Shown here: positions 5,943 to 53,706 of the stretch, piece after piece
Numbering within the stretch: the first letter of the stretch is position 1
How the letters are laid out: every line of letters begins with the position of its first letter
Assembly (NCBI GenBank): GCA_023247705.1
Contig: JAHFFY010000001.1
Span: 33,358 to 97,357, forward strand
Direction: 5' to 3'
Source: Candidatus Omnitrophota bacterium
GTDB lineage: Bacteria; Omnitrophota; Gorgyraeia; Zapsychrales; JAHFFX01
Length of the DNA: 64,000 nt
Position numbers and translations under genes: made by a program
Notes under the pieces: generated by a model
Told to the model about the DNA's origin: nothing
Databases searched by the model: none
What the model saw: the letters and a program-made list of their open reading frames with translations, nothing else

Positions 5943-8030
5943 ATGGAATCTCCGATAAACGGTCTCTCCAAGATCATCAATAAATTTTCGATCATCAAGC
6001 AAATTCCGATTTTTAATAATCTCAATTGGTTTCAATTGCACATGATCAGCCAAAAAAGTGTTCTTCAGGAATACCATAAGGGAGATTTTATTTATAAAGA
6101 GGAAAGTCCTGCGGATGGTTTTTATTGTTTGATCTCGGGAAGATTGCAGGCGTATAACATGAAATCATCCGGGCGCAAAGACAACCTGGAGCTTATTCTC
6201 CGCGGAACTCATTTCGGAATTACCTCGCTTTTTACCGGAGAGAATCATTCTTTAACCGTTGAAGCGGTGAACGATTCGATCATCCTGAAGATTACGCGGG
6301 ATGATTTTTTGTTGCTCTTGAAGATGATTCCCAAACTGGCCATCGAACTCAACCGGAGCTTATCCCAGCGTGTCAGAAATAAAAAACTCAACGCCCAATC
6401 CATTTTTAACAGTTCGATTATTTCCGTTTACAGTCCTGTCAAGGGGACCGGCAGTTCCACGTACGCGCTGAATCTCGCGATTAACCTTGAACGCGAAACC
6501 AAACGAAAGGTTATTTTAGTCAATATTAGTTCCAATCTTTCGGATGAACAGTCGTTGATTTTCAAGGTCCCGGACGCCTCGCCTCATTGGAAGATCCCGG
6601 GGATCAGGATTCAGGAGACGGTGGGCGATCATCAGAAAATTATCCAGAGCGTGATTAAAGGGCATCTTAATGTCGATCTGTTGCATGTTGTTTTTAACCC
6701 TACGAACAAAAATTTAGTCGACCTGATCAGCCAGTTTGTCAGTGCGTTGATCAACGATTATTATTATCTCGTTGTTGATCTTCCCAATAATATGGATGAT
6801 GTTGTCTTGCAGACATTGACTCAATCGGACTTGATCCACTTGATCACTCTAAACCGGATGGAAGATCTGAAGCTCACAAATCAGGTGATTCATGATCTGC
6901 AAACAAAGTTAAAAGACCGTTTTATTAAGGAAAACGTTCAAGTCATGATCAGCAGTTTAGATCGTTCGGAAAACCGTTTAGTCCATCACGAGATCGATAA
7001 CGTTTTAGATTTTAAGGTCTCAGACGTATTACCGTTTATTCCCCCTGAGGATTTGAGAAATCCAGTGATCACGGATGCGATCGCTGTCATCACTCCGGGA
7101 CTTGATAGTGAATATACCAAGACCTTGGCCAGAATTTCGCGGAAAATCGGAGGGATTTTAATCGGCTTAGTCTTGGGCGGTGGGGCGGCTTTAGGATTAG
7201 CTCACATCGGCGTTATCAAGGTCCTGGAGCGGGAAAATATCCCCATTGATATTGTGGTGGGAAGCAGCATGGGTGCATTAATTGCCGCTCTCTGGACGAT
7301 TGGCAATAATTCCGAACATCTAGAAATATTTGCGCGGGAATTTGAGAAAAAACAGAATGGATTGAAATTATTCGATCCTGTTTTTCCAAGGACTGGCTTT
7401 ATCGGTGGACGCCTGATCAAATTGTGGTTGAAAAAGCATCTCGGAGATAAGACGTTTTATGATACAAAAGTCTCTTTGAAAATCGTCAGCTATGATCTGA
7501 TCAGACGAGAGGAACAAATTTTGGACCAAGGCAGTTTAGTCGATGCGGTTAGGGAAAGCGTTGCGATCCCGGGTGTTATCGAACCTGTCTTTCGTGGTGG
7601 AAAGATGATTATTGATGGAGGAGTTTTGAATCCTTTGCCGACCAATGTATTGACCACCCTTGGAATTAAAAAAATCATTGCGATCAATGTCCTGCAATCA
7701 CCGGCGGATGTTTCGAAAGGCTATGATCTTCATCAGGAAAAAGCGCAGCTAGAACATCAAATTCCGTTCATGAAATCGCCGTTAGTCTTTTTGGGTGTTC
7801 GGATCTCTAAAGTTTTCAGCGCCAATATCCCGGATATTATTATCCGGACTCTTCAAGCCTCTGAATATGTCATCGCTGAGCAAAGCGCCAACCAGGCCGA
7901 TGTGCTTATTCATCCGAATCTGGTCGGCATTAACTGGTTTGAATTGTATCAGGTCGATCAGCTAATTCAAAGCGGAGAAGACGCGACGTTGCAAAAAATT
8001 GGAGAAATTAAGAGATTGATCCGGGAATAA
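5943..8030 (+). CDS. cNMP-binding domain + patatin-like phospholipase fusion (NTE-like)
   Basis: N-terminal Crp-like cyclic-nucleotide-binding fold (residues ~20-140). C-terminal patatin motifs GGGAALGLAHIG (Gly-rich), GSSMG (GxSxG nucleophile) and DGG (catalytic Asp). Confidence 0.75.
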   Translation: MESPINGLSKIINKFSIIKQIPIFNNLNWFQLHMISQKSVLQEYHKGDFIYKEESPADGFYCLISGRLQAYNMKSSGRKDNLELILRGTHFGITSLFTGENHSLTVEAVNDSIILKITRDDFLLLLKMIPKLAIELNRSLSQRVRNKKLNAQSIFNSSIISVYSPVKGTGSSTYALNLAINLERETKRKVILVNISSNLSDEQSLIFKVPDASPHWKIPGIRIQETVGDHQKIIQSVIKGHLNVDLLHVVFNPTNKNLVDLISQFVSALINDYYYLVVDLPNNMDDVVLQTLTQSDLIHLITLNRMEDLKLTNQVIHDLQTKLKDRFIKENVQVMISSLDRSENRLVHHEIDNVLDFKVSDVLPFIPPEDLRNPVITDAIAVITPGLDSEYTKTLARISRKIGGILIGLVLGGGAALGLAHIGVIKVLERENIPIDIVVGSSMGALIAALWTIGNNSEHLEIFAREFEKKQNGLKLFDPVFPRTGFIGGRLIKLWLKKHLGDKTFYDTKVSLKIVSYDLIRREEQILDQGSLVDAVRESVAIPGVIEPVFRGGKMIIDGGVLNPLPTNVLTTLGIKKIIAINVLQSPADVSKGYDLHQEKAQLEHQIPFMKSPLVFLGVRISKVFSANIPDIIIRTLQASEYVIAEQSANQADVLIHPNLVGINWFELYQVDQLIQSGEDATLQKIGEIKRLIRE

Positions 8031-8247: not shown

Positions 8248-10359
8248 ATGTGGTTTTTAGCTTACTCCAAGAGATCATGTTTTATGTCAGGAACACCGCA
8301 AAAAATTCGAATCGGATCACGTTCCAGCGCTTTGGCCATCAAACAGGTTGAAGAGGTTTTGTATCTTTTCAAAAAAAGTGGGATCTATTTTGAATATGAA
8401 CTCAAGATATTTCAAACCCGCGGGGATCACGACAAACAGACTCCTCTCACCGCTAGCTCAATTGATAATTTTTTTACCGATACTCTTGATGAAGCCCTCC
8501 GGACCGAACAAATCGATCTTGCGGTGCACAGTGCGAAAGATGTTCCTCAGCGATTGCCGCCAGGATTGGATTTATTTGCATTAACCCCGTGTTTGGACGA
8601 AACAGACAGTCTCGTGGCCTCCCGAAAATTATCTGAACTTAAATCCGGATCGAAAATCGGTGCAAGCAGTTTAACTCGTCAGGAAGCGATCAAAGCCATT
8701 AATCCTCATGTTAAAGTGTTTGATATCCGTGGGACGATCGAAGAGCGGATGGATTTGGTCAAAAAAGAAACATTAGATGGAGTGATTATCGCGACGTGTG
8801 CTTTAAAACGTTTAAATTTAGAGCAAGACATCACGGAAATCATGCCCTGGGAGACAACCGCATTACAGGGACAATTAGCGATCGTTGGCCGATCAAGGGA
8901 TTTAAAATTAAAATTCATGTGTCATCCGCTGGATGTCCGTTCAAAGTATGGACGGGTTGTTTTGGTTGGTGCTGGTCCGGGAGACCCGGAACTCATCACC
9001 TTGAAGGCGATCAAGGCGTTAGAACAAGCCCAGTGTGTTTTTTATGATTACCTTGCTCATCCTGATTTATTGAAATATGCGCCCAACGCCGAAAAGATTT
9101 ATGTCGGTAAAAGAAAAGCCGAGCATTCGCTTTCCCAGGCGCAACTGTCCAGAATGTTACGCGAAAAAGCCGCGCAAGGCCAACAGGTCGTTCGATTGAA
9201 GGGCGGAGATCCTTTGATTTTTGGGCGTGGGGCGGATGAGATTCAATATTTAAGATCTTATCATATCCAGGTGTCGGTTGTGCCCGGCATCAGTTCAGCT
9301 ACAGGCATTCCATCGCTGTTAGGCATTCCTCTGACGGCGCGCGGCATTTCATCTTCAGTTGCTTTTATCAGCGGACATGAAGAGGATGAAAAAATTCTAC
9401 CTAACAGAATATTACAGATTCCAAAAGTTCAAACGATCGTATTTTTTATGGGATTGACAAAGTTAAAGATCGTTGTCGAGTCTTTACAGCAATCCGGATG
9501 GTCCAATGAAACACCGGTAATTATTATTTCTAGAGGAACAAGGCAAGATCAACAGATTGTTACCGGAACGATCAGCAATATTGAAGCGCGGTTATTATCC
9601 CATAAAATTGAGCCTCCGGCCCTGATTATAGTCGGAGAAACGATTGAATTTTATAATCAAAATAATTCTGCAGCCCCCAATATTCTGTATTTGGGGACCA
9701 AGCCGGAGAAATACGCGTTTTTGGGTCAGATCATTCATTTCCCTATGATGGATATTATTCCCACTGAATTCTCTCAACCACAGCGCGATCAGATTTTTTC
9801 CGATTTTAGTCGAAGCGAAGTCATTATTTTTACCAGCAGGTTTGCTGTGCAATATTTCGTCGCGTTGCTACAAGACCAAAAGGATCTTTTATCGAAGCTC
9901 AAGACCAAGATCATCTGTGCCGTGATCGGCCGGGAGACCGAGAAGGTTTTAAATGAGTTCGGTATCAAAGCCCGCTGTGTTCCTTCGATCGAAACCAGCC
10001 AGGGATTGTTTGAAGCTTTAAACCAACAGTTTGAACTCAAAGGAAAGAAAATTATCCTGCCCCGTTCCTCATTGCCAAACCCGTATCTCAAACAAAAATT
10101 AACCGAAAACGGAGCACAGGTGATCGAGGTTACAATTTATAAAAACAAAAAGCGAACAACAATTTTCCCGAACCTCCAAGACCAATCCTTTGCCCAAGTG
10201 AGCCATATTCTTGTTTCGAGTCCGTCAACGGTTAATTATTTTCTCGAGATTTATCATCAGATCCCTCAAAATTGGCAAATCATCAGTAAAGGACCAGTGA
10301 CGACTCAGGCGTTATCAAACGTCGGTTATGCGACAACAAAAATCATTGAATTAATGTAG
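8248..10359 (+). CDS. Tri-domain fusion: porphobilinogen deaminase-like (HemC domains 1-2) + uroporphyrinogen-III C-methyltransferase (CobA/SUMT) + uroporphyrinogen-III synthase (HemD)
   Basis: HemC-like IRIGSRSSALA, AVHSAKDVP, QGQLAIVGR. SUMT signature VVLVGAGPGDPELITLKA plus GGDPLIFGRG. The C-terminal ~230 aa is HemD-like. Start is ambiguous between 8248 and 8284. Confidence 0.7.
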   Translation: MWFLAYSKRSCFMSGTPQKIRIGSRSSALAIKQVEEVLYLFKKSGIYFEYELKIFQTRGDHDKQTPLTASSIDNFFTDTLDEALRTEQIDLAVHSAKDVPQRLPPGLDLFALTPCLDETDSLVASRKLSELKSGSKIGASSLTRQEAIKAINPHVKVFDIRGTIEERMDLVKKETLDGVIIATCALKRLNLEQDITEIMPWETTALQGQLAIVGRSRDLKLKFMCHPLDVRSKYGRVVLVGAGPGDPELITLKAIKALEQAQCVFYDYLAHPDLLKYAPNAEKIYVGKRKAEHSLSQAQLSRMLREKAAQGQQVVRLKGGDPLIFGRGADEIQYLRSYHIQVSVVPGISSATGIPSLLGIPLTARGISSSVAFISGHEEDEKILPNRILQIPKVQTIVFFMGLTKLKIVVESLQQSGWSNETPVIIISRGTRQDQQIVTGTISNIEARLLSHKIEPPALIIVGETIEFYNQNNSAAPNILYLGTKPEKYAFLGQIIHFPMMDIIPTEFSQPQRDQIFSDFSRSEVIIFTSRFAVQYFVALLQDQKDLLSKLKTKIICAVIGRETEKVLNEFGIKARCVPSIETSQGLFEALNQQFELKGKKIILPRSSLPNPYLKQKLTENGAQVIEVTIYKNKKRTTIFPNLQDQSFAQVSHILVSSPSTVNYFLEIYHQIPQNWQIISKGPVTTQALSNVGYATTKIIELM

Positions 10360-13650: not shown

Positions 13651-15042
13651 TTAGATATATCGGCGTAAATGAGAGGGAAGGATTTTTAACGAATGTCGGT
13701 ATTTGCTGACTGTTCTACGGGCAAGAACTAATCCTTTTTCCTGAAAGAGACGCTGAATATCTTGGTCTGAGAGGGGTGTATTTTTATCTTCGTTGTCCAC
13801 CATATCTTTAATTTCCTCGCGAATACTCCTGCTCGAAATATTATTCTGTTGTTCATCAACCAGGCCGTTTGAGAAAAAGAACTTGATTGGGACCACCCCT
13901 TGAGGAGTTTCAATATATTTATTTTGAATGGCTCGGCATATGGTCGATTCATTCCGGCCGATCGCCAGTGCGATCTCTTTCATGTTCATGGGCGGAATGG
14001 CACTGTTTGTTCCTTCGAAATACTCTTTTTGTTTGGTGAGGATAAACTGCGCGATTTCCCGAATAGTTGAACCGCGCTGTTCTATACTTTTGATGAAATG
14101 GAGGGCATCTCGCAGTTTTCCCTTAAGAAATTCCTTTTCTTCATTGGTTAAATTGTTTTTACTCATAATATTTTTATAGAATGAATTAATACGCAAATGG
14201 GGGATCTGCCGCATATTGATATTAATCTGATAGCCATGAACAGGATCATTTTTGATGATTACATCTGGAACAATCTCAATGTTGCTGGATAATGGACGAT
14301 AATTTCTGGCTGGTTTTGGTTCCAATAATGCGATAATTTTGATTGATTCTTTGAGTTTGTCAATGGATATCCCTAATGCGCGAGCGATTGGCGTGTATTT
14401 TTTTCGACCTAAATCTTCTAAATATAAGTCTACGATTTTATAGACAGCGGTTTCCTTTGCGTAATTTTTGTTTCGTAACTGACAAAGTAGGCATTCTTTG
14501 AGTGTAAAAGAGGCTATGCCGATCGGTTCAAAGTTTTGAATGATTCTCCTGACTTCTTCAACTGGTTCTGTGGAGGGCAGGGCAAGGACTTGTGCTATTT
14601 CATCACAAGATATTTTGAGATAGCCATCTTCATCAAGGTTTCCAATAATCAATTCGGCAATTTCGAGTTTGAGCGAATCAGATATTTCAATGCGAGCTTG
14701 TTGCAGGAGTATATCTTCCAGAGGAAGCTCTCTGGTGATTGGTTTTTCTTCAAATTCATCTTCATCCGTTGGATGGTTGTCGTATTTATTTATTTTGTTC
14801 AATTCCGTATGCTGAAGGATTTTTTGATTCATTTGGGATTCGAGGTGTGCAACAGAAGCCTCAAGGTTTTCTTCCGCCAGCTCAAGAAGCGGGTTATTTT
14901 CAAGTTCCTGCTCAATTGTTAGGCGTAGTTCAGTCAAGGGTAGCATAAGAATCGAGATAGATTGCTGCATGAGGGGAGACAGAACTGGTTTTAGGGTCTG
15001 TAAAGGTGTTAATTTGAATTTCATATGCAGAAAGTATACCAT
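13651..15042 (-). CDS. rpoN: RNA polymerase sigma-54 factor
   Basis: C-terminal RpoN box (ARRTVSKYR); HTH region; acidic region II; N-terminal Gln/Leu-rich activator-interacting region. Confidence 0.9.
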   Translation of the reverse strand: MVYFLHMKFKLTPLQTLKPVLSPLMQQSISILMLPLTELRLTIEQELENNPLLELAEENLEASVAHLESQMNQKILQHTELNKINKYDNHPTDEDEFEEKPITRELPLEDILLQQARIEISDSLKLEIAELIIGNLDEDGYLKISCDEIAQVLALPSTEPVEEVRRIIQNFEPIGIASFTLKECLLCQLRNKNYAKETAVYKIVDLYLEDLGRKKYTPIARALGISIDKLKESIKIIALLEPKPARNYRPLSSNIEIVPDVIIKNDPVHGYQININMRQIPHLRINSFYKNIMSKNNLTNEEKEFLKGKLRDALHFIKSIEQRGSTIREIAQFILTKQKEYFEGTNSAIPPMNMKEIALAIGRNESTICRAIQNKYIETPQGVVPIKFFFSNGLVDEQQNNISSRSIREEIKDMVDNEDKNTPLSDQDIQRLFQEKGLVLARRTVSKYRHSLKILPSHLRRYI

Positions 15043-15323: not shown

Positions 15324-15339
15324 TGGCACACTAGTTGCT
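15324..15339 (+). promoter_or_regulatory. Sigma-54 (-24/-12) promoter, TGGCAC-N5-TTGCT, heading the EPS operon
   Basis: Exact consensus match: TGGCAC at 15324-15329, 5-nt spacer, TTGCT at 15335-15339. About 85 nt upstream of the first gene (15425). Confidence 0.7.
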
Positions 15340-38703: not shown

Positions 38704-40044
38704 ATGATCGGAACACTAAAAATTATAACGCCAATAATATTTTATTTCATTGGCATCATGTTCATTTTTGTCTCTTTTTCCGGAAAAGTGCGGTGGACGA
38801 TCTTGTTTATTACCTTTTTGTTGCCTTTACAAAATATTATCGATAAGTTGCAGCAATTTCCTTTTGGTAAAGATTATATTGATATCTTGCTCATTGCGAT
38901 GACATTTGGATGGGTCGTTGACGCTGCTCAATACAAGCGGAAAACGTTTGAGAAATCACCGATCAATACTATTGCGATTGTACTCATGTGCTATATCTAT
39001 TTGTCATTATGGAATGGGTATCTTTATTTGCACTATTTTGCCCCATTTGATCTATCGGATCCTCGGTTGAAATCCTGCAAAAATTTTCTTATTTTACCGT
39101 TTTTATATTTTTTGACATTTAATAATATCCATGACAAAAAATGGGTTTGGCGAACGTTTGCCATGATGTGTTTATCGATGGTATTTATGAATTACTATCT
39201 TCTGCGTCAGATTGAGATGTTTTCCACCATCACCTCCCGGGATAAAATACATGGCACATTCGTTGATCTTGGCCCCAATGAAATCGCGGCATTTTACAAT
39301 CAATACTCTATGATCTTGTTGAGCATCATCTTTTTTATGAAGAACAATTTAAAAAAAATTTTATTGTTTATACTTTTTTGTGTAAATATTTTTTGCGTCG
39401 CCTTTCTTTTTTCTCGCGGGGCTTATTTAGGACTTGTGGCAGGATTGTTTTTCCTCTTTGCCATCAAACGAAAAGTTCTTCTTATCCCGCTTATTTTAGC
39501 GCTCTTGGCCTGGCAAACTGTTTTGCCGGCTAACGTAAAAGCCCGAATTGAAATGACCACCAATGCGCAAGGGGAATTGGACCCTTCGGCGCAAGGTCGT
39601 ATCATCATCTGGGAGCAAAGTATCTCGTTATTCAAAAGTCAGCCTATTTTTGGTGTCGGGTATGCCGTATTCCGCGAGTTAGGATACGGGTTGGGAGATA
39701 CACACAATATTTATCTGAAAATACTGACGGAACAGGGAGTCATTGGATTTATTATATTTCTGGTTCTTATCGGGACATTGTTTCGGGAGGGCTGGAAACT
39801 ATTCAAACGGGGGGACGATGATATGTCGAAGGCTTTGGGATTAGGTTTTGCCGCGTGTATCATTGTTCTGCTGGTTAATAATCTTTTTGGAAACCGCTGG
39901 ACTCATCCTGTGTTAAGTTCTTATTTTTGGATCATTGCTGGCTTAGTGGCTCGTTGCAATGTGTTAGCGGATCAATCGAATAAAGAACAACATCCTAATC
40001 GGAAAAAAAGAGAAAGAAGCCCGAGACTTTATGGAAGAATCTAG
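38704..40044 (+). CDS. O-antigen ligase/polymerase-like (Wzy_C) membrane protein, exosortase-locus associated
   Basis: About 10-12 TM helices; Wzy_C-like loop (FSRGAYLGLVAGLFF ... periplasmic loop with R/H residues). Confidence 0.65.
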   Translation: MIGTLKIITPIIFYFIGIMFIFVSFSGKVRWTILFITFLLPLQNIIDKLQQFPFGKDYIDILLIAMTFGWVVDAAQYKRKTFEKSPINTIAIVLMCYIYLSLWNGYLYLHYFAPFDLSDPRLKSCKNFLILPFLYFLTFNNIHDKKWVWRTFAMMCLSMVFMNYYLLRQIEMFSTITSRDKIHGTFVDLGPNEIAAFYNQYSMILLSIIFFMKNNLKKILLFILFCVNIFCVAFLFSRGAYLGLVAGLFFLFAIKRKVLLIPLILALLAWQTVLPANVKARIEMTTNAQGELDPSAQGRIIIWEQSISLFKSQPIFGVGYAVFRELGYGLGDTHNIYLKILTEQGVIGFIIFLVLIGTLFREGWKLFKRGDDDMSKALGLGFAACIIVLLVNNLFGNRWTHPVLSSYFWIIAGLVARCNVLADQSNKEQHPNRKKRERSPRLYGRI

Positions 40045-41187: not shown

Positions 41188-43089
41188 ATGGATACGATGC
41201 CAAAACGATTAACTGCAATTATTTCAATTTTCCTAATTTTATTAGCAGAAATATGTGCTGCGTCCTATATTGATACATTTCTATATTCATTTCATCGCAG
41301 GTTGTTAGTTTCGCGTTTTGTTTTTTTCTTAGTCGTGATGCTGAGTTTGTCTGTAGCGGTGCGATTAAAATCGAAGATAGCCGTTTTCGTGAGAGAATTC
41401 TTTTCAACGCCTGAACATCCTTTGAACTTGGCCGTTTTTCGGGTCGTTTTATTCGGGACGCTCTACCAAAGTTCGGATCTCGTCCAGTTGATTCAATTCA
41501 GCCAAATCCCTTCGGTCTTGATTTTCCCTCCGTTCGGTACAGAATGGATTCTTCGGTTTCTTCCGATCAATACCCATTTGGCGATTATCAGCTGGGTTAT
41601 TTTTCGTATTTTTTGCTTAAGCGCTATGATCGGTTATTGCACGCGCATTAGTATTTTAGGGACAATTCTTTCAGCGCTATATGTCTTGGGGATTCCCCAA
41701 TTTTTTGGCAAAGTTGATCATCCCTATCTTCACCTCATTTGGTTCGCCATGATTTTAAGCGTCAGTCCGTGTGCAGATCTTGGGTCAGTCGATGCATTAT
41801 TAACGTTAAAGAAGACGAAAGCTGTCAGCTTAAGAAAAATAACCCCATCTCTTGAATATGCATTACCATTACGCTTTGTCTGGTTACTCATAGGGATAAT
41901 TTATTTTTTTCCTGGCGTTTGGAAGTTATGGAAGGGTGGTTTTGATTGGGCACTGAGCGAGAATATACAATTCACGCTTTACCTTAAATGGTATGAATTT
42001 TCTGATTGGGTTTCTTCATTTCGGTTGGATCACCATCCCATTCTTTATCGCCTTTTTGGACTTGGAGCGATTGTTTTTGAACTCTCATTCATTTTCTTGA
42101 TTTTTCTACCGCGTATGCGTCTTTGGATTGCCGGTATAGGACTTTTATTCCATAATTTGACCAATCTTGTCTTTCGTATTTCCTTCTGGAATTTACAAAC
42201 CTGTTACGTTGCCTTTGTCAATTGGCATCAGGTTTTTCAAAAGATAGGGAAGAGGTTCTCTAGAGAAAAATTATATGTCATCTATGATGGACACTGTTCT
42301 TTTTGCATACAAACCGTCAACTGCTTGCAGATGTTTGATGTATTTGATCAATTGATATGTGTCAATGCGAATGATAGAAATCAATTAAATGTGCATCCCT
42401 TGTCTGGGCTTGATCGAGAGGCTATTTTAAAGGACATGCATGTTGTCGATGGAAAAAATGTTTATTTGGGTTTTTCCGCTTACCGTGCTTTAGCCAGACG
42501 GATTCCCATATGCTGGATATTCCTGCCGTTTTGCTATCTTGGTTTTGTGAATCGGATCGGCAATCAAGTTTACCGAACGATTGCGGATCATCGTCAATGT
42601 GCGATCAATGTGAACAAAACCTTTGAGGCCCAATCCCATCCCTTGCCTGGGTCTTCTTTAAATGGCATCGTTGTGGTCGGGATATTATCAGTATTGATGA
42701 ATATTTATGTTGGGACCAAACAGATCACCCAGGGCTGGCCGTTTGCCTGTTATCCTACCTTTTCTGATCTCGCCCATGGCACAACAACGACGATCGAGAT
42801 AGAAGCGGATAGTTTTAACGGCAAGAAAGTTGTCTTAACTCAACATCAAATGAGTAATAATTTTGAAGAACATCGTTTTCGCGGATTGTTAAGTAAAATC
42901 CTGGCAACCAAGGATAAAAAGCTACAAGAAATGCAACTAAACGCTTTATGGACACTTTACACGCGATATAATTCTCATTTAGGGAATATCAAGACTGTTT
43001 ACTTCTATCGTGTTGAACGGCTAACTTCTCCCGAAATGAAAAAACATAATTTGCTGAAACGAGAATTAATTCTGGTGAACGAATTTTAA
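41188..43089 (+). CDS. Multi-pass membrane protein: HTTM (gamma-carboxylase-like) domain fused to DCC-family thiol-disulfide oxidoreductase (DUF393) plus unknown C-terminal domain
   Basis: N-terminal ~330 aa polytopic with HTTM-like conserved stretch; middle LYVIYDGHCSFCIQTV (DGxCxxC of the DCC family); ~150-aa C-terminal domain of unknown function. Confidence 0.5.
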   Translation: MDTMPKRLTAIISIFLILLAEICAASYIDTFLYSFHRRLLVSRFVFFLVVMLSLSVAVRLKSKIAVFVREFFSTPEHPLNLAVFRVVLFGTLYQSSDLVQLIQFSQIPSVLIFPPFGTEWILRFLPINTHLAIISWVIFRIFCLSAMIGYCTRISILGTILSALYVLGIPQFFGKVDHPYLHLIWFAMILSVSPCADLGSVDALLTLKKTKAVSLRKITPSLEYALPLRFVWLLIGIIYFFPGVWKLWKGGFDWALSENIQFTLYLKWYEFSDWVSSFRLDHHPILYRLFGLGAIVFELSFIFLIFLPRMRLWIAGIGLLFHNLTNLVFRISFWNLQTCYVAFVNWHQVFQKIGKRFSREKLYVIYDGHCSFCIQTVNCLQMFDVFDQLICVNANDRNQLNVHPLSGLDREAILKDMHVVDGKNVYLGFSAYRALARRIPICWIFLPFCYLGFVNRIGNQVYRTIADHRQCAINVNKTFEAQSHPLPGSSLNGIVVVGILSVLMNIYVGTKQITQGWPFACYPTFSDLAHGTTTTIEIEADSFNGKKVVLTQHQMSNNFEEHRFRGLLSKILATKDKKLQEMQLNALWTLYTRYNSHLGNIKTVYFYRVERLTSPEMKKHNLLKRELILVNEF

Positions 43090-47419: not shown

Positions 47420-48564
47420 AAACCATATTCTGGATTTTATTCATATTAATCGTGTACTGTTATTTTGGATATCCGATCCTGCTTAGCGTTTTCGCCAGCT
47501 GCCGTACGCGAAAAGTTATAAAACAAGAAATTTTTCCAACCATTTCCGTTGTGATCTCGGTTGCGAATGAGGAATCGGTCATTGAGAAGAAGATGAGTAA
47601 CCTTTTATCCATGGATTATCCTTCCGACAAACTGGAAATTTTAATCGGATCGGATGGTTCAACGGATAAAACGAATGATATCGTCCGAAATTTTAACGAC
47701 AAACGCATTCAGCTAATTGTTAGTTCACAGCGAAAAGGGAAGATGGCGACCGTTAATCAACTGGTTCAACTGGCCCAAAACGAAATGATCGTTTTTACGG
47801 ATGCCCGTCAGATGTTTGACCGAGTTGCTTTTAAGGAATTGGTTTTTAACTTTGCCGATCCACACGTAGGATGTGTCAGCGGAGAGTTGATTTTTACGAA
47901 AAAGGAAGGCTCGACCGCTCAGGGAATTAATCTATACTGGGAATATGAAAAATTTATGCGTCAAAAAGAAAGCCAACTTCATTCCATGATCGGGGCAACA
48001 GGAGCGATCTATGCGATCCGTCGAAAATTGTTTGTTCCTGCGCCGACCAATATGATTTTGGATGATGTTTTTACGCCGCTTAAAATTGTTCAACAAGGGT
48101 ACCGTGCGATCTTTGAGGGACAGGCGATCGCTTACGATGAAGCGGCAAACAACCCAAAAGAAGAATATGCGCGGAAAGCCAGAACCTTAGCCGGCAATTA
48201 TCAGATATTTTTTGTTTTGCCGGACATCTTTAACCCCTTGAAAAGTCCTTTGGCGATTCAGATGTTCTCGCATAAACTGCTAAGGGTTTTGATCCCATTT
48301 TTTTTGATTTTTTTGCTCATTATCAATTTTAAATTAAGAAACAATCAATTTTTTATTTTTATTTTATGGGGCCAGATCCTTTTCTACGGGATGGCGATAT
48401 TGGGAAGCTTGGCAAAAAAACCAAAATATGCTATTCTTAAGCCTATTTCTAAAATGTGTTATATTCCCTATGTCTTTTGTCTCCTTAATTTCTCTGCTTT
48501 AGCTGGATTTTGGCGCTTTGTTCGGTCTTCGCAGACGGTCACTTGGGAGAAGGCAAGGACTTAG
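47416..48564 (+). CDS. Family 2 glycosyltransferase with N- and C-terminal TM segments (processive-type topology)
   Basis: ISVVISVANEE, DGSTD, TDAR motifs; C-terminal multiple TM helices. Confidence 0.75.
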   Translation: MKTIFWILFILIVYCYFGYPILLSVFASCRTRKVIKQEIFPTISVVISVANEESVIEKKMSNLLSMDYPSDKLEILIGSDGSTDKTNDIVRNFNDKRIQLIVSSQRKGKMATVNQLVQLAQNEMIVFTDARQMFDRVAFKELVFNFADPHVGCVSGELIFTKKEGSTAQGINLYWEYEKFMRQKESQLHSMIGATGAIYAIRRKLFVPAPTNMILDDVFTPLKIVQQGYRAIFEGQAIAYDEAANNPKEEYARKARTLAGNYQIFFVLPDIFNPLKSPLAIQMFSHKLLRVLIPFFLIFLLIINFKLRNNQFFIFILWGQILFYGMAILGSLAKKPKYAILKPISKMCYIPYVFCLLNFSALAGFWRFVRSSQTVTWEKART

Positions 48565-48586
48565 CGAAACGATTCAAAATAACGAT

Positions 48587-49405
48587 ATGCGTGAGTTAAT
48601 TACAAAATATAAAAACCAATTTTTAATTGCTTTAATCTTATTATTTACCTATACGCCCACATTAATTTGGATGTGGGATCGATGGTTTACTCGGGATTCT
48701 TATTATTCGCATGGGATTCTTATTCCATTCATTACAGCTTATTTAATCTGGCAGAATAGATCACAGTTAATGCAGATGAAACCAGAAAAATCCGAGATAG
48801 GGATGAAATTGATCATTCTCGGACTGTTTGTTCATTTAATTAGTTCTCTTTTCCGGGTTTATTTTTCCTCTGGTTTTTCTCTGGTGATTGTTATTATCGG
48901 ACTCATTCTTTATTTTTATGGAGAAAAAATTTTAAAAGATATCTCGTTCCCGATCGTTTTTTTATTTTTTATGGTTCCCTTACCGCTGGTTGTTATTATC
49001 AATATTAGTTTTAAGATGAAATTATTCGCGGCTCAAATTGCGGCTGTTGTGTTAAATAGCATGAATATTCTGGCGGTCAGGGAGGGGAGCCTGATTCGCA
49101 TGGCTAATGCCCAAGTTGTCGTCGATGATGTCTGCAGCGGGTTGCGATCTTTGATGTCGTTGACGGCCTTAGGAAGCATTTTTGCGTATTGGATGAAAGG
49201 GCCGATGTGGAAGCGGCTTTTACTGTTTTTGTCTACAGTCCCCATCGCGGTGATCACAAATGTGTGCCGAATTATATTGCTTGCTTCGGTCAGCGAGATT
49301 TGGGGGTCGAAATACGCGACGGGGTTTATTCATGATCTTTCTGGCTTTATTGTTTTTGCGTTAGCTTTTATTTTATTGTATTCAGTTTCTAGGTTAATGG
49401 AATAA
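48587..49405 (+). CDS. Exosortase (EpsH/XrtA family)
   Basis: Eight-TM architecture. Conserved exosortase motifs: DDVCSGLRSL (catalytic Cys region), NVCRIILL (Asn/Arg) and the HD-like C-terminal motif. The track ORF starts at 48518, overlapping the upstream gene. Confidence 0.85.
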   Translation: MRELITKYKNQFLIALILLFTYTPTLIWMWDRWFTRDSYYSHGILIPFITAYLIWQNRSQLMQMKPEKSEIGMKLIILGLFVHLISSLFRVYFSSGFSLVIVIIGLILYFYGEKILKDISFPIVFLFFMVPLPLVVIINISFKMKLFAAQIAAVVLNSMNILAVREGSLIRMANAQVVVDDVCSGLRSLMSLTALGSIFAYWMKGPMWKRLLLFLSTVPIAVITNVCRIILLASVSEIWGSKYATGFIHDLSGFIVFALAFILLYSVSRLME

Positions 49406-49407
49406 AT

Positions 49408-50043
49408 ATGATACGTGATAAAAATTTTGGCATCATTGTTTGTCTTCTATTAATTTCCGGAATAATTTCCTGGGTTTTATATTTCAAGGAATATACTCAA
49501 GTGGATACAGTGGATATTACCAAATTTCCGAAATCGATATCGGGCTGGACAGCTGAAGATCTTCCAATCAGCAAGGAAGAGTATGATATTTTAGAGACTC
49601 ACAATGTCGTAGCAAGGCGTTATAAAAATATTCAGAATGAACCGATATATCTCTTAATTGTTTATTCTCAGCATAATCGCAAAATTTCTCATCCTCCAGA
49701 AGTTTGCTATACAGGGGGAGGCGTTACTATTTTAGAAAATGTTAAAGATAAGATCCCTGTTTCTGCAGGAAAGAATATAATCAGTGCGAACCGATTACTT
49801 TTAGAGCTAAGGGGGACCAAGCAGTTTTCGTATTATTGGTTTAAAGTAGGCGATTCGTTTACCGCGAACTATTGGAATCAACAAGCCCTCATTGCCGTAA
49901 AAACATTGTTTGGGCAGCCTCATAGTAGCGCATTAATTCGAATTTCATCCGACATCAGCAAGAATGATGAAAAAGGGGCTATTGATCGAATTAAGTACTT
50001 TACAAATTTGATCCTAAATGATTTAAATCGATATCTGCCGTAA
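49408..50043 (+). CDS. EpsI-family exosortase-associated protein
   Basis: N-terminal TM; size, position (immediately 3' of exosortase) and ISGWTAEDLPISKEEYDIL...VVARRY region match the EpsI family. Confidence 0.7.
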   Translation: MIRDKNFGIIVCLLLISGIISWVLYFKEYTQVDTVDITKFPKSISGWTAEDLPISKEEYDILETHNVVARRYKNIQNEPIYLLIVYSQHNRKISHPPEVCYTGGGVTILENVKDKIPVSAGKNIISANRLLLELRGTKQFSYYWFKVGDSFTANYWNQQALIAVKTLFGQPHSSALIRISSDISKNDEKGAIDRIKYFTNLILNDLNRYLP

Positions 50044-50297: not shown

Positions 50298-50313
50298 TGG
50301 CACATTATTTGCT
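50298..50313 (+). promoter_or_regulatory. Sigma-54 (-24/-12) promoter, TGGCAC-N5-TTGCT
   Basis: Exact consensus at 50298-50303 / 50309-50313; about 45 nt upstream of the ATG at 50358; the same 16-mer architecture as the promoter at 15324. Confidence 0.7.
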
Positions 50314-50357: not shown

Positions 50358-51224
50358 ATGGAAACTCAGAAAAAAATCAATCACAACTCTAAAGGAAAAA
50401 TGACAGTTGTTTTAGCGGTCATTTTCCTCATGCTATTTGTTCAAGCAGCTTGGGCGACCCTTTCCTTTCTCAAACCGTATGACAGTGACATCCAATCAAC
50501 GAATATAAAGGAAGGCAATGCATCAGAAATTCCTGAGCAATTACCCGAAAATTCGAAATCGCATGCTCCTGAGCCGACAACTCTAGCGTTATTTGGGAGT
50601 GGTGTTCTTGGGATGGTTGTGAGTGCCATTCGAAAGGCTTATAACCATGCAAAAAGAATTTTTGATATATTTGTATCAATTGTCGCTTTTATCATCCTTT
50701 CTCCATTGTTTTTATTTGCTGCCGTTCTCATCAAGTTGAGCTCCCGCGGACCGGTTTTGTTCACCCAAGAGCGAGTAGGAAAAGATGGAAAACATTTCAA
50801 AATTTATAAATTCCGTACCATGCGCGTGGATGCTGAGAAAGAAACAGGGCCGGTTTGGGCAAAGGCAAATGACACTAGACTTATCCCTTCCGGACGTTTT
50901 TTAAGAAAGACTCATATTGATGAAATCCCTCAGTTTTTTAATGTCCTTATAGGTGACATGAGTATTATTGGGCCAAGACCTGAACGGCCAGTTTTCGTAA
51001 CTAAATTTAAAGAAATTATTCCTGATTATGAACAAAGACTATCAGTCAAACCGGGCATTACTGGTTTAGCGCAAGTTTGGCATAAATATGATGAGACGAT
51101 CGAAGATGTCCGTAAAAAAATCCGTTATGATTTGTTATATATTAAAAAGTTATGTCTTTGGACTGATTTAAAGATATTTTTAAGGACTTTTCGGGTTGTT
51201 CTAACTGGAGAGGGAGCTCGATAG
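50358..51224 (+). CDS. Polyprenyl-phosphate sugar phosphotransferase (small WcaJ/EpsL-type priming enzyme) with an N-terminal signal-peptide + PEP-CTERM-like module
   Basis: The catalytic domain starts at KRIFDIFVSIV..., the usual N-terminus of small priming sugar transferases, and contains RTMRVDAE and IIGPRPERP motifs. The preceding 85 aa carry a signal peptide (VVLAVIFLMLFVQAAWA) and a PEP-CTERM-like motif (APEPTTLALFGSGVLGMVVSAIRKAYNHAKR). Confidence 0.75.
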   Translation: METQKKINHNSKGKMTVVLAVIFLMLFVQAAWATLSFLKPYDSDIQSTNIKEGNASEIPEQLPENSKSHAPEPTTLALFGSGVLGMVVSAIRKAYNHAKRIFDIFVSIVAFIILSPLFLFAAVLIKLSSRGPVLFTQERVGKDGKHFKIYKFRTMRVDAEKETGPVWAKANDTRLIPSGRFLRKTHIDEIPQFFNVLIGDMSIIGPRPERPVFVTKFKEIIPDYEQRLSVKPGITGLAQVWHKYDETIEDVRKKIRYDLLYIKKLCLWTDLKIFLRTFRVVLTGEGAR

Positions 51225-51377: not shown

Positions 51378-52289
51378 ATGAAGAAGTTATTTGTAGTTTT
51401 AGCCCTAGTTGTTGGAGTGTTCTCAATTAACTCCCAAGTTTGGGCACAACCGTTTACACCATCGATGGCGGGAGATACTTATGATACTACGCCAGATGCG
51501 ATCCCGACTCCTAAGGATAATAATGATAACTTAGGACCTTATTCGGGTACGCCTTATACGTTAAGTTCAACAGAACCTGGTTCACATGGACCTAACCCGG
51601 CGGACATCAACGATGCCATCAATTTGCTTTTGAGCACTGCTTACGTAAGAAATCAAGATGTTGATTTCCTTCGTTTTCTTGGCCCAGATGCAACCTGGAA
51701 AGACTTGAGCACAATAGATAACGATGGAACATATGTGCTCGTTTCTCTTACCGCAGCTAACGAAAATACCTTAAGAGTGTATGATGTGGCTTCACCTGGG
51801 ATTAAATTGAATGTTCTTGGCCCAGATCGGGGTTTTGGATATACTGGGGATGGAAGCCTGGCTAAACCTTTTGAGGCTGGTTTTTCTCCATTAACTCCAG
51901 GAACGAACTTTGGTTGGTCACTAAAAAGTGAAAGAAAGGCACCCCAGACTCCTCCATTTTTTGTAAGAGAATGGGATTCCAATGTCGCTTTTAACGTTGA
52001 TGGTTTGGATCATATGTTGACATACCATTTAGCCGATTTAAAAGGTAAGAAAGTTTACATCAAAGTTGGCACGGTTGTTCAGCAGTATACGTTTAACGAT
52101 CCATATCTTTTAGCCTGGGAAGACAAAGGATTAGGCACAGATGGTAAACTAGGCGATGAAGATTATGATGATCTTATTTATCTAGTTGATCGCGTTCAAC
52201 CTTTCAACCCGGTTCCAGAACCGATGAGCATGATGTTGCTCGGTAGTGGGTTGGTTGGTTTAGTTGGTTTAAGAAAGAAGATTAGTTAA
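51378..52289 (+). CDS. PEP-CTERM domain secreted protein (exosortase substrate)
   Basis: Sec signal peptide (AQP cleavage); C-terminal VPEPMSMMLLGSGLVGLVGLRKKIS (PEP motif + TM helix + basic tail). Confidence 0.85.
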   Translation: MKKLFVVLALVVGVFSINSQVWAQPFTPSMAGDTYDTTPDAIPTPKDNNDNLGPYSGTPYTLSSTEPGSHGPNPADINDAINLLLSTAYVRNQDVDFLRFLGPDATWKDLSTIDNDGTYVLVSLTAANENTLRVYDVASPGIKLNVLGPDRGFGYTGDGSLAKPFEAGFSPLTPGTNFGWSLKSERKAPQTPPFFVREWDSNVAFNVDGLDHMLTYHLADLKGKKVYIKVGTVVQQYTFNDPYLLAWEDKGLGTDGKLGDEDYDDLIYLVDRVQPFNPVPEPMSMMLLGSGLVGLVGLRKKIS

Positions 52290-52292
52290 TAA

Positions 52293-52321
52293 TCTTTTAC
52301 GGAATTATCAGAAGTAAAAGA
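52293..52321 (+). other. AU-rich hairpin between the two PEP-CTERM genes (possible attenuator or processing site)
   Basis: TCTTTTAC (52293-52300) / GTAAAAGA (52314-52321), 13-nt loop; no T-tract. Confidence 0.2.
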
Positions 52322-52381
52322 AAATATATTCCCTAGAGCATTTGATAACCTGTAGCAAAAAGGAGAGGAGGTTCATATGAG

Positions 52382-52660
52382 ATGTCAAAAGACACGAAAA
52401 AACTTTTATCTTTTGCCCTTATCTCGTTATTTCTCCCGTTCTTTGTCGGGTGTCAAGGTGCTGCCAATCAACTAAGTGAATTCACCTTGGGTGGGGGTGG
52501 TACAAACAATGCTGTTAGTTCTGGTTTTTTCCCCCTTAGTGTTGTAGATGGAGGTACTGCGATAGCAGCCATCCACAATCCAGAACCTACAACAGTGTTA
52601 TTGTTAGGGAGTGGCTTCATAACAATGGGTTTATATAGGAATCGAAGAAAGAATAGATAA
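52382..52660 (+). CDS. Mini lipoprotein with C-terminal PEP-CTERM domain (dual-anchor exosortase substrate)
   Basis: Lipobox FFVGC after a signal peptide; C-terminal HNPEPTTVLLLGSGFITMGLYRNRRKNR; AGGAGAGGAGG RBS. Confidence 0.75.
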   Translation: MSKDTKKLLSFALISLFLPFFVGCQGAANQLSEFTLGGGGTNNAVSSGFFPLSVVDGGTAIAAIHNPEPTTVLLLGSGFITMGLYRNRRKNR

Positions 52661-52686: not shown

Positions 52687-52731
52687 AAAAAAATACGGTA
52701 GGATGAGTGATCTTCCTACCGTATTTTTTTT
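52687..52731 (+). terminator. Rho-independent (bidirectional-type) terminator after the PEP-CTERM genes
   Basis: A-tract at 52687-52692; 11-bp stem ATACGGTAGGA (52693-52703) / TCCTACCGTAT (52714-52724); 10-nt loop; T8 at 52725-52732. Confidence 0.8.
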
Positions 52732-52770
52732 ATTCGTGACCGTACTTAAGGCAAAAATTTGGCTTTATGT

Positions 52771-52836: not shown

Positions 52837-53706
52837 ATGAATAAGCATAAAAACAATAAAAGTTTGATTTCTTTGCTGCGGTCATCAATTGAGATTCTAT
52901 TTCATAAACCATTGATTTTCTATCCCTATGTGATTTCAATTTTTATTCAACTTTTTGTGCTTGAAATTTTATACTTTGCACCGCGGTATCCTTTATCGCT
53001 ATTTTTTGCTCCCCTGATCAGACAATTTTGGGGGGAAATGTTTTTACATTTTCCGTTTAATCTCCTTTTATTGCCTGTTTTATTCCAATACGTAAAAACC
53101 CCGATTTATATTATCTCGAGCAGTTATCTCATTGGGATAGCAATCATTATCATCGCTGCCATTAACGAAGATCAAACGATTAGCTTTAAATCGGCCGCCA
53201 AAAAGGTATTGCCTCGCTATATCCATTTGATCTTCATCACTAGCATTTCTTATTCACTTTTTTATGGATTTTCGCAACTTTATGGATTGGTGATCAAAAG
53301 GGCCTTTATTATTCACTCTGAGACAGGAATATTTTATTTAATTAAGCGGATTGTGCTTGATGGGACTCCCTTTTTCTCCCTTTTAATAAGCGTTTTTGTT
53401 TCGACCCTCTTAGTTTTTATGATGCCGCTCCTCCTGCTCGAAAAAAAGAATTTATTCGCAGCGTTTTGGACTAATTTGAAGAAAGTTATTAAATCCTTCT
53501 GGTTTGTCTTGGGGATTGTTTTATTGCCGACCTTGTTATATCTGCCAGTCTTGTTATTGAGTAGTAATCTATCGAGTTTTGGAAATGGGGTTGCTCCTGA
53601 AATCCGAATGTCCCTCACAATAGCCAATATCCTTATTATAGTGATCATTGATGCCATCGTTTATACAGCGATAACATTATATTATTTATTTGATCAAGAA
53701 AATTAA
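52837..53706 (+). CDS. Polytopic membrane protein, hypothetical (possibly the detached sensor module of a PrsK-like kinase)
   Basis: About 7 predicted TM helices; no catalytic motifs; first gene of the operon containing the TPR protein, histidine kinase and sigma-54 regulator. Confidence 0.4.
   Translation: MNKHKNNKSLISLLRSSIEILFHKPLIFYPYVISIFIQLFVLEILYFAPRYPLSLFFAPLIRQFWGEMFLHFPFNLLLLPVLFQYVKTPIYIISSSYLIGIAIIIIAAINEDQTISFKSAAKKVLPRYIHLIFITSISYSLFYGFSQLYGLVIKRAFIIHSETGIFYLIKRIVLDGTPFFSLLISVFVSTLLVFMMPLLLLEKKNLFAAFWTNLKKVIKSFWFVLGIVLLPTLLYLPVLLLSSNLSSFGNGVAPEIRMSLTIANILIIVIIDAIVYTAITLYYLFDQEN

Follow-up and report, generated by a model that had tools for sequence, protein, structure and literature searches.

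The DNA analysed in this work (hereafter the window) is a stretch of 64,000 nucleotides from a Candidatus Omnitrophota bacterium, and the object of the study is a short gene within it, at 52382–52660, whose predicted product combines a lipoprotein-type signal at its N-terminus with a PEP-CTERM sorting signal at its C-terminus. We refer to this gene and its relatives as mini genes and to their products as mini proteins. The features of the gene itself, in window coordinates, are the following.

52361–52371, forward strand: ribosome-binding site AGGAGAGGAGG, a strong Shine-Dalgarno sequence 10 nt 5′ of the ATG of the mini gene
52382–52660, forward strand: dual-signal mini protein gene, 92 amino acids (aa), 92 codons plus TAA
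52382–52450, forward strand: signal peptide, aa 1–23, with K3, K6 and K7 in the n-region and a 15-residue hydrophobic core, L8–V22, as h-region
52442–52453, forward strand: lipobox F-V-G-C24 (family consensus [LIV]-[YATS]-G-C)
52454–52573, forward strand: low-complexity Gly/Ser/Ala linker, aa 25–64, with a semi-conserved L-x-x-F/LGSLFG patch
52574–52657, forward strand: PEP-CTERM sorting signal, aa 65–92, made of H-N-P-E-P, the transmembrane segment TTVLLLGSGFITMGLY and the basic tail RNRRKNR

The open reading frame (ORF) is a genuine gene, and the coordinates originally predicted for its 92 codons on the forward strand are exact. Its translation consists of MSKDTKKLLSFALISLFLPFFVGC followed by QGAANQLSEFTLGGGGTNNAVSSGFFPLSVVDGGTAIAAIHNPEPTTVLLLGSGFITMGLYRNRRKNR. 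Behind the N-terminal signal peptide, P67-E68-P69 leads into a hydrophobic segment of about 16 residues and then into RNRRKNR at the extreme C-terminus, which is the layout of PEP-CTERM proteins; the model TIGR02595 gives 21.5 bits against a cutoff of 16, though PF07589, with 18.9 bits, falls narrowly under its gathering score of 20.7. On those defining features that were tested, the product is a PEP-CTERM protein, in agreement with the C-terminal domain that had been predicted. Between C24 and P67 lie 42 residues, rich in Gly, Ser and Ala as anticipated and with no Lys or Arg (an example of a linker peptide is QLSEFTLGGGGTNNAVSSGFFPLSVVDGGTAIAAIHNPEP).

With respect to the N-terminal signal, a lipoprotein rule of the PROSITE PS51257 type was re-implemented as a script (Cys at positions 15–35, Lys or Arg in the n-region and an uncharged h-region), and Cys24 is accepted by it, with Lys or Arg within the first seven residues and six uncharged positions before F-F-V-G-C. 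The strict consensus [LVI]-[ASTVI]-[GAS]-C is, however, not matched, Phe being at −3 and Val at −2, and the word canonical, which the original prediction had used for this lipobox, slightly overstates the case.

Conservation of the two signals

A word-indexed homology search with the 92-aa protein returned the protein itself and a single 80% relative, in which the signal peptide has drifted and the Gly-Cys pair and the mature part are retained. The family surfaced only through synteny and an exhaustive HMMER profile search, which covered 1.84 billion cluster representatives and returned 116 of them at E ≤ 1e-3, around 113 of these being 76–139 aa long and matched end to end. Gly-Cys closes the signal peptide in 111–112 of the 114 short family proteins. 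The lipobox has Leu, Ile or Val at −3 in 96 of 111 members and Gly at −1 in 110 of 111, with an invariant Cys, and P-E-P is present in all 111 members scored, with His at −2 of it in 90. The consensus reads L-L-P-F-[LIV]-[YATS]-G-C-[GQN]-G-G-G-G … (LGSLFG) on the N-terminal side and I-A-T-I-H-N-P-E-P-A-T-M-L-L-L-G-S-G-x-x-A-M-A-Y-F-K-x-K-K on the C-terminal side, the distance from Cys to P-E-P ranging from 31 to 89 residues (median 47) and the linkers averaging 31% Gly, 18% Ser, 10% Ala and 0.4% Lys plus Arg.

In an alignment of seven sequences at 29–38% identity the only invariant columns are M1, G23, C24, N66-P67-E68-P69, T71, L74 and G76, and Gly-Cys and N-P-E-P are still invariant among 62 sequences (both alignments together span 27–42% identity). 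Judged from these columns, the pairing of Gly-Cys with N-P-E-P is far beyond chance. With annotated starts, 138 of 172 family-like proteins pass the PS51257-type rule, and 151 do so if the pattern by itself is applied; a strict lipobox is found in 69 of the 172, the misfits having mostly Tyr, Cys or Thr at −2, and distant members recovered with the 62-sequence profile bear textbook lipoboxes (LTGC, LAGC, LSGC and ISGC). TIGR02595 is matched at E ≤ 0.01 by 49 of the 62 family members. Furthermore, the ratio of nonsynonymous to synonymous substitution rates (dN/dS, Nei-Gojobori) is 0.05–0.46 over 32 measurable pairs of 60–88% identity, which indicates coding genes under purifying selection; a spurious ORF is ruled out by these ratios together with the size of the family. 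Both signals proposed for the single protein are therefore present and under selection across a large family.

Neither NCBIfam nor Pfam holds a model specific to this family, the matches being generic PEP-CTERM models and sub-threshold tails of other PEP-CTERM families, and a sequence search of the PDB with the family profile gave nothing meaningful. On the 92-aa protein the PepA model NF033554 reaches 22 bits, where 80 are required, and aligns to no more than the tail and a portion of the linker; the mini protein is neither PepA nor a member of another named PEP-CTERM subfamily. The sole member named at NCBI is a 'PEP-CTERM sorting domain-containing protein [Candidatus Omnitrophota bacterium]', and the organism-labelled relatives are all Candidatus Omnitrophota. 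By these searches, the mini proteins form a previously uncatalogued family, traced to Omnitrophota.

The signal peptidase of the family can be discussed from the residues around the Cys. Sites of signal peptidase I (SPase I) tolerate Ala, Gly, Ser, Cys and Thr at −1 and −3, with drift among them, and the enzyme does not accept Tyr at −3; an invariant Cys with Gly at −1 is, unlike such a site, the signature of Lgt and LspA. In the mini family the signal peptide varies freely apart from the invariant Cys and the preceding Gly (99%), and this pattern argues that the Cys is the lipidation site, while a cut after the Cys by SPase I is disfavoured because the would-be −3 residue is often Tyr. Cys24 is in this way predicted to be acylated. 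We have also considered a cut after the Cys that would expose an oligo-Gly N-terminus as a sortase-like nucleophile, and rejected it on account of Gln or Asn at +1 in about half of the members and of the Tyr at the would-be −3.

A distinct picture emerges from the 69 larger PEP-CTERM proteins encoded in the same loci, which have SPase I-type signal peptides with A-x-A-type sites (VWA↓QP, ADA↓F, AHA↓…) and no Cys; loose lipobox-like matches occur in three of the 69, one of them within a spurious N-terminal ORF extension. Their tails are of the V/I-PEP type, with H-x-PEP in 1 of 69 against 45 of 54 mini proteins (Fisher p = 2e-23). Since the larger proteins of the same loci rarely carry either, the lipobox and the H-x-PEP tail travel together. 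As a class, PEP-CTERM proteins are poor in Cys (0.4%; Haft et al. 2006, PMC1569441). Two other ORFs of the window, a DUF3568 protein (SASG-C) and a 144-aa ORF (LLG-C), have canonical lipoboxes, which suggests that the organism uses standard ones.

Two side observations concern the family itself. Some loci contain two mini genes, tandem or nearby paralogues with 67–70% identity and dN/dS of 0.2–0.46, located as follows in the loci of our collection (identifiers beginning with L).

L023: mini genes at 8924 and 9977
L024: mini genes at 2797 and 3850
L028: mini genes at 6666 and 9998
L051: mini genes at 993–1430 and 1496–1801

In addition, the search matched three long proteins, P0004 (2500 aa, 8 matched stretches), P0045 (928 aa, 4 stretches) and P0102 (1254 aa, 5 stretches), which are built of head-to-tail units of signal peptide, domain, PEP-CTERM helix and basic tail; they look like PEP-CTERM 'polyproteins' or gene arrays read through under a reassigned stop codon.

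Operon and exopolysaccharide locus

The features that surround the mini gene, and those of the wider locus that bear on its product, are listed below.

13651–15042, reverse strand: rpoN, divergent from and adjoining the second sigma-54 promoter
15324–15339, forward strand: second sigma-54 promoter, TGGCACACTAGTTGCT, an exact match, upstream of the Wza-like exporter and chain-length-determinant genes
48518–49405, forward strand: exosortase (PF09721, E = 6e-66; TIGR02602, 173.6 bits against a cutoff of 105.55)
49408–50043, forward strand: EpsI (TIGR02914, 91 bits against a cutoff of 42.8)
50298–50313, forward strand: sigma-54 (−24/−12) promoter, TGGCACATTATTTGCT, an exact TGGCAC-N5-TTGCW match in the 314-bp gap before 50358
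50358–51224, forward strand: priming sugar transferase (Bac_transf), first gene of the operon (PF02397, E = 1.5e-69; TIGR03025, 313.7 bits)
51378–52289, forward strand: 303-aa DUF4114/PEP-CTERM protein with an SPase I-type signal peptide (VWA↓QP) and a V-PEP tail
52687–52735, forward strand: intrinsic terminator (A-tract, 17-bp-class hairpin, T-tract) that ends the operon
52837–53706, forward strand: TM289, a conserved 289-aa multi-pass membrane protein, the usual downstream neighbour of the mini gene

Because the sigma-54 promoter precedes the sugar transferase, the transcription unit comprises the sugar transferase, the DUF4114 PEP-CTERM gene, the mini gene and the terminator, and the mini gene is most likely transcribed from this promoter. 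Loci in which the mini gene comes first behind a gap (L017, L032, L034 and L035/36) have the same promoter 50–120 nt upstream of it. The window also has rpoN and the genes of a GAF kinase and a sigma-54 response regulator, and the second exact promoter, at the head of the exporter and chain-length genes, makes the whole 43-kb locus appear sigma-54 driven. A sigma-54 promoter has also been described for the PEP-CTERM genes controlled by PrsK/PrsR (PMC1569441).

The strong terminator that had been predicted is borne out: its hairpin folds with −25.6 kcal/mol (z = −4.5) and none of 200 shuffles folds as well. An equivalent terminator stands 3′ of 26 of 45 distinct mini genes, and one of the same type follows 16 of 68 larger PEP-CTERM, 7 of 39 sugar-transferase and 1 of 35 TM289 genes. 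On the contrary, the AU-rich hairpin that the original prediction had placed in the 92-nt gap 5′ of the mini gene (52293–52321) does not rise above shuffled level (z = −0.55; 54 of 200 shuffles fold as well), and an Rfam scan of 50–53 kb gave sub-threshold matches only, on the terminator hairpin.

As had been noted, the mini gene follows a larger PEP-CTERM gene, that of the 303-aa DUF4114 protein (PF07589, 25.2 bits; PF13448, 24.7 bits), which has orthologues with 50–62% identity in six Omnitrophota metagenome-assembled genomes (MAGs). Using this upstream protein as query, with one genome per species, six loci were returned, three labelled Candidatus Omnitrophota and three 'uncultured Planctomycetales'; we read all six as Omnitrophota MAGs because they have a common architecture. 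Directly downstream of the DUF4114 gene, five of the six have an ORF of 90–113 aa with the mini architecture. In a broader collection of 58 non-redundant loci, 50 have a mini gene, and most of the others end at a contig edge. Its position is fixed: it usually comes after the priming sugar transferase and 0 to 10 larger PEP-CTERM genes, and before TM289. The sugar transferase is upstream in 19 of the 22 loci with enough flank, exosortase and EpsI occur in 13 of 15 such mini-gene loci, and TM289 comes directly after the mini gene in 28 of 36. The comparative check that had been suggested, for mini-lipoprotein PEP-CTERM genes next to an exosortase, has in this manner turned up a family. The 'major/minor subunit operon' of the original prediction fares less well: the DUF4114 gene upstream is the variable element, the number of larger PEP-CTERM genes ranging from 0 to 10 per locus, and the mini gene is the one that recurs. 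Of 20 well-flanked loci, 5 have no PEP-CTERM gene besides it, so that it is not the minor partner of a 'major subunit' and is the more constant of the two. Examples are L010 and L011, with the order Bac_transf, mini gene, a TPR protein (L010 only), exosortase and EpsI.

The window from 15.3 to 58.4 kb is a single exopolysaccharide (EPS)/exosortase locus. Besides rpoN, it contains genes for a Wza-like exporter, a chain-length determinant, a 'PEP-CTERM system ATPase', a tyrosine kinase, deacetylases, ATP-grasp and GNAT enzymes, Wzm/Wzt, around 15 glycosyltransferases and a Wzy_C/O-ligase-like protein, followed by exosortase, EpsI, the mini-gene operon, TM289, a TPR protein, a GAF histidine kinase, a sigma-54 response regulator and a PocR/GAF protein. 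The exosortase also has the catalytic signature TIGR04178 (70.5 bits against a cutoff of 23). Exosortase and EpsI (48518–50043) lie 3 kb upstream of the mini gene, in keeping with the co-occurrence of PEP-CTERM proteins and EpsH-family exosortases, and are presumed to be the pair of enzymes that processes the mini protein. The exosortase remains under the XrtA cutoff (TIGR03109, 184.9 bits against 208), and the best or near-best NCBIfam matches of the accessory genes are likewise models of the XrtA system, each below cutoff: ATPase 302 against 324.5 bits, chain-length determinant 241 against 279, tyrosine kinase 166 against 231, exporter 102 against 180, O-ligase-like protein 69 against 188, PrsR 401 against 503 and PrsK 85 against 300. 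By these scores we consider the locus a divergent XrtA-like system.

With regard to the neighbours, TM289 matches no Pfam or NCBIfam family, with weak GPDPase_memb matches in 3 of 31 homologues, and its named homologues are all Omnitrophota 'hypothetical proteins'. Its AlphaFold2 (AF2) model has a predicted local distance difference test score (pLDDT) of 89.5 and a predicted TM-score (pTM) of 0.85, and a Foldseek comparison with the PDB gave no fold match (best E = 0.14); E43, P52, P73 and Y128 are among the invariant residues, R50 and H71 being nearly invariant. In three loci TM289 and the TPR protein, elsewhere encoded just after it, form a fusion.

L010: 10445–12151, TM289–TPR fusion
L053: 5606–7354, TM289–TPR fusion
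L060: 2722–4482, TM289–TPR fusion

In locus L061, TM289 occurs with neither a nearby exosortase nor a mini gene, and the position equivalent to that of the mini gene (7441–7995) is taken by a 184-aa secreted protein with G-x-G-[YF]-[DN]-T-[IV]-G-S-G repeats and no PEP-CTERM tail. Within the EPS locus of the window, a 633-aa protein (41188–43089) has a central DCC1-like thiol-disulfide oxidoreductase domain as its sole family and no NCBIfam match.

The sugar transferase begins with a module of its own, consisting of an SPase I-type signal peptide (..AWA↓TLSF[IV]KP.D), around 40 residues and a PEP-CTERM-like signal. The latter is internal (aa 70–93, ∼50565–50636), stands just before the catalytic domain and follows the pattern [SR][RH]-A-P-E-P-[ST]-T-x-A-L-F-G-S-G…R-[RK], with 23.0 bits for PF07589, above the gathering score, and 16.8 bits for TIGR02595. 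The module is kept in about 28 of 35 orthologues (loci L004–L009, L014, L020, L022–L026, L028, L030–L033, L037, L040–L042, L044, L047, L048, L050, L052 and L059) and is missing from the shorter, 233-aa sugar transferases of a divergent high-GC type of cluster (L010, L011, L021, L045, L053 and L057). It suggests that the exosortase may dock to, or process, the enzyme that initiates glycan synthesis.

Fate of the mini protein

The predicted signals require a precursor whose two ends stay in the cytoplasm and whose linker, free of basic residues, is outside: an inner-membrane hairpin with a periplasmic linker, similar to that of the M13 procoat. The original prediction had regarded attachment at both ends as an odd, possibly transient topology; in fact it is an ordinary one, shared by the M13 procoat and by all PEP-CTERM precursors, which are held at both ends before processing, and what sets the mini protein apart is the type of signal peptidase and the predicted lipidation. 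Lgt would then add diacylglycerol to Cys24 and signal peptidase II would cut before it, leaving a lipid-anchored mature N-terminus, while exosortase and EpsI would recognise H-N-P-E-P and the transmembrane helix, remove the helix and basic tail, and pass the new C-terminus to an acceptor, a joining step proposed by analogy with sortase, archaeosortase A, rhombosortase and PorU of type IX secretion (T9SS). The product would be a lipopeptide of about 45 residues, a flexible tether fastening to the membrane the exosortase acceptor, most plausibly the polysaccharide of the 43-kb locus, the polymer whose priming enzyme shares a transcript with the mini gene; alternatively within the same scheme, the lipopeptide may be a Ser/Gly-rich carrier on which the glycan is hung.

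Since each of the two signals is independently conserved, the most economical reading is that both are used, and since the mature part has no folded domain, has no Lys and varies threefold in length, its role can hardly go beyond that of a flexible connector or glycan carrier. Taken together, we give a probability of roughly one half to the reading in which the mini proteins are an Omnitrophota family of two signals and a linker that acts as a lipid-anchored flexible tether, its C-terminus being transferred by the exosortase to a surface acceptor. Lipidation, exosortase cleavage, the acceptor and the final location of the product are in this reading deduced from the signals and the gene context. 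The adaptor envisaged in the original prediction would be compatible with these results.

Several observations weigh against it. Most of the context counts come from loci that were found through the family profile itself; of the 8 loci ascertained by other means than the mini gene, 6 contain it, and of two exosortase clusters reached through TM289 one carries it (L063) and one does not (L062). It is in fact not universal, as exosortase clusters L009 and L062 have no mini gene, and a search of the gap in L009 for a mini-gene remnant found none: the gene is frequent in these loci, not obligatory. The lipobox of the 92-aa member strays from the strict consensus at −3 and −2, and Tyr at −2, which 40% of the family have, is unusual among lipoproteins of model organisms. 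The acceptor is hypothetical, and transfer by the Lol system of a protein still held by its helix would need the exosortase to act first, an order that is assumed here.

The same evidence has been weighed for other fates of the protein. The mini protein might be a lipid-anchored glycan carrier, with a linker O-glycosylated by a Wzy_C-type ligase and an exosortase that merely frees the lipoglycopeptide from the inner membrane for outward movement. A linker with 18% Ser and 31% Gly, almost uncharged, would suit this role, as would the co-transcription with the priming sugar transferase, and the Wzy_C protein at 38704–40044 has similarity to the 'putative O-glycosylation ligase, exosortase A system-associated' family, with a weaker likeness to the O-oligosaccharyltransferase TfpM. 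However, the ligase match is far below its family cutoff (68.8 against 188 bits), a polymerase being equally possible, the glycosylation sequon is undefined and Ser is scarce in the Gly/Ala linkers of several members (those of L006 and L008 among them), so that we regard this as rather unlikely. It seems improbable that the protein is an ordinary small PEP-CTERM substrate, cut by signal peptidase I at an unlipidated Cys and then released or glycosylated: the off-consensus lipobox of the 92-aa member would agree with this, but not a Cys that stays invariant behind Gly (110 of 111) in a signal peptide that otherwise drifts, nor the Tyr, Thr and Ser at the would-be −3, which fit SPase I poorly, in a class of proteins otherwise poor in Cys (0.4%) and next to larger neighbours with a clear A-x-A and no Cys.

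A regulatory or accessory role has also been weighed, in which the protein would act as decoy or competitor, occupy the exosortase as a pseudo-substrate with a priming or chaperoning function, or be a signal for the adjacent GAF kinase and sigma-54 regulator. This would agree with the lack of a folded domain, with an H-N-PEP tail unlike the tails of the cargo proteins and with a gene immediately upstream of those for TM289, the TPR protein, kinase and regulator in most loci. Yet the strong terminator parts the mini gene from the regulatory genes and leaves it in the cargo operon, a decoy would not require a lipobox, and a competitor would have no rival substrate in those loci whose sole PEP-CTERM gene is the mini gene; the decoy of the original prediction finds no specific support, and we give such a role little credence. 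The least probable arrangement, to which we assign very little weight, is a permanent tether between the two membranes, with an uncleaved helix in the inner one, the lipidated N-terminus in the outer one and the linker across the periplasm. Extended linkers of 31–89 residues would span around 10–30 nm and Asp is not at +2, both as such a tether would have it, but conservation in the protein is highest at P-E-P and its flanks, a point in favour of exosortase recognition, and LolCDE would have to extract a protein still anchored by its helix.

Returning to the lipid-anchored tether, a stronger form of it would make the family the constant, dedicated substrate of a lineage-specific exosortase, and the first natural protein with an Lgt-type lipid at its N-terminus and an exosortase-ligated C-terminus, stapling exopolysaccharide or another envelope acceptor to the membrane. 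We advance this only tentatively, as something possible and on the doubtful side. If true, the internal PEP-CTERM-like module of the sugar transferase would mark a physical coupling of glycan initiation and exosortase action, and a membrane-bound product of about 45 residues would let mass spectrometry read the acceptor chemistry of exosortases directly.

Relation to known systems and significance

The mini protein resembles the substrates of PEP-CTERM/XrtA-type EpsH systems, such as PepA of Zoogloea, in its tail of PEP, helix and basic residues, in its small size and in the low complexity of the part between the signals, and its locus is, as in XrtA-type systems, an EPS locus with exosortase, EpsI, a sigma-54 regulator pair, a chain-length determinant, a Wza-like exporter and an O-ligase-like protein. 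It differs from those substrates in its lipoprotein-type signal peptide, in having H-N-PEP instead of V/I-PEP and in the lack of a family-specific curated model. The likeness to Braun's lipoprotein Lpp is a functional analogy only: Lpp is also very small, lipid-anchored at its N-terminus and joined to an envelope polymer by transpeptidation of its C-terminus, but it is a coiled-coil trimer joined through its C-terminal Lys to peptidoglycan by L,D-transpeptidases, unrelated in sequence or structure to the mini protein, which is Gly-rich, predicted to be unstructured, without Lys in its mature part and equipped with a presumably cleavable helix, and which does not qualify as an Lpp. In size (∼70–90 aa) and plan the precursor is also close to the M13 procoat, in which a signal peptide is followed by a short periplasmic loop that lacks basic residues and then by a C-terminal helix with a basic tail; the procoat, however, is a phage coat protein that SPase I cuts and that is neither lipidated nor processed at its C-terminus.

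In several other systems, namely PGF-CTERM/archaeosortase A, GlyGly-CTERM/rhombosortase, MYXO-CTERM/myxosortase and the T9SS C-terminal domain (CTD)/PorU, cleavage of a C-terminal signal at the membrane goes along with attachment of the new C-terminus to a lipid or glycolipid anchor (PMC11980579, PMC7468200). These four illustrate what the exosortase acceptor might be, but they leave proteins with a C-terminal anchor and a free N-terminus, whereas the product of the mini gene would be held or modified at both ends. A full-text search across 7.7 million PMC papers and bioRxiv turned up no account of a PEP-CTERM protein with a lipobox, none of the papers that name both 'PEP-CTERM' and 'lipobox' describes a dual-signal protein, and the later exosortase literature, including Haft's 2023 preprint, does not mention a dual-signal mini protein. 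The novelty lies in a new conserved combination of a known sorting signal and in a new family, not in a new kind of system.

The existence of exosortases was predicted in 2006, and because their known substrates are large, heterogeneous and released, the chemistry at the cleaved C-terminus of PEP-CTERM proteins is hard to trace. With two signals, a short linker, a product probably kept at the membrane by its lipid and co-transcription with a priming glycosyltransferase, the mini protein would be a natural minimal model substrate, and the family offers an unusually simple one for finding what exosortases attach proteins to. It also shows that selection can act jointly on a lipobox and a C-terminal sorting signal, a pair that annotation pipelines currently do not flag. 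For the Omnitrophota, a widespread and mostly uncultured phylum, these results point to a specific role for the mini proteins, in which a surface polymer would be anchored to the envelope.

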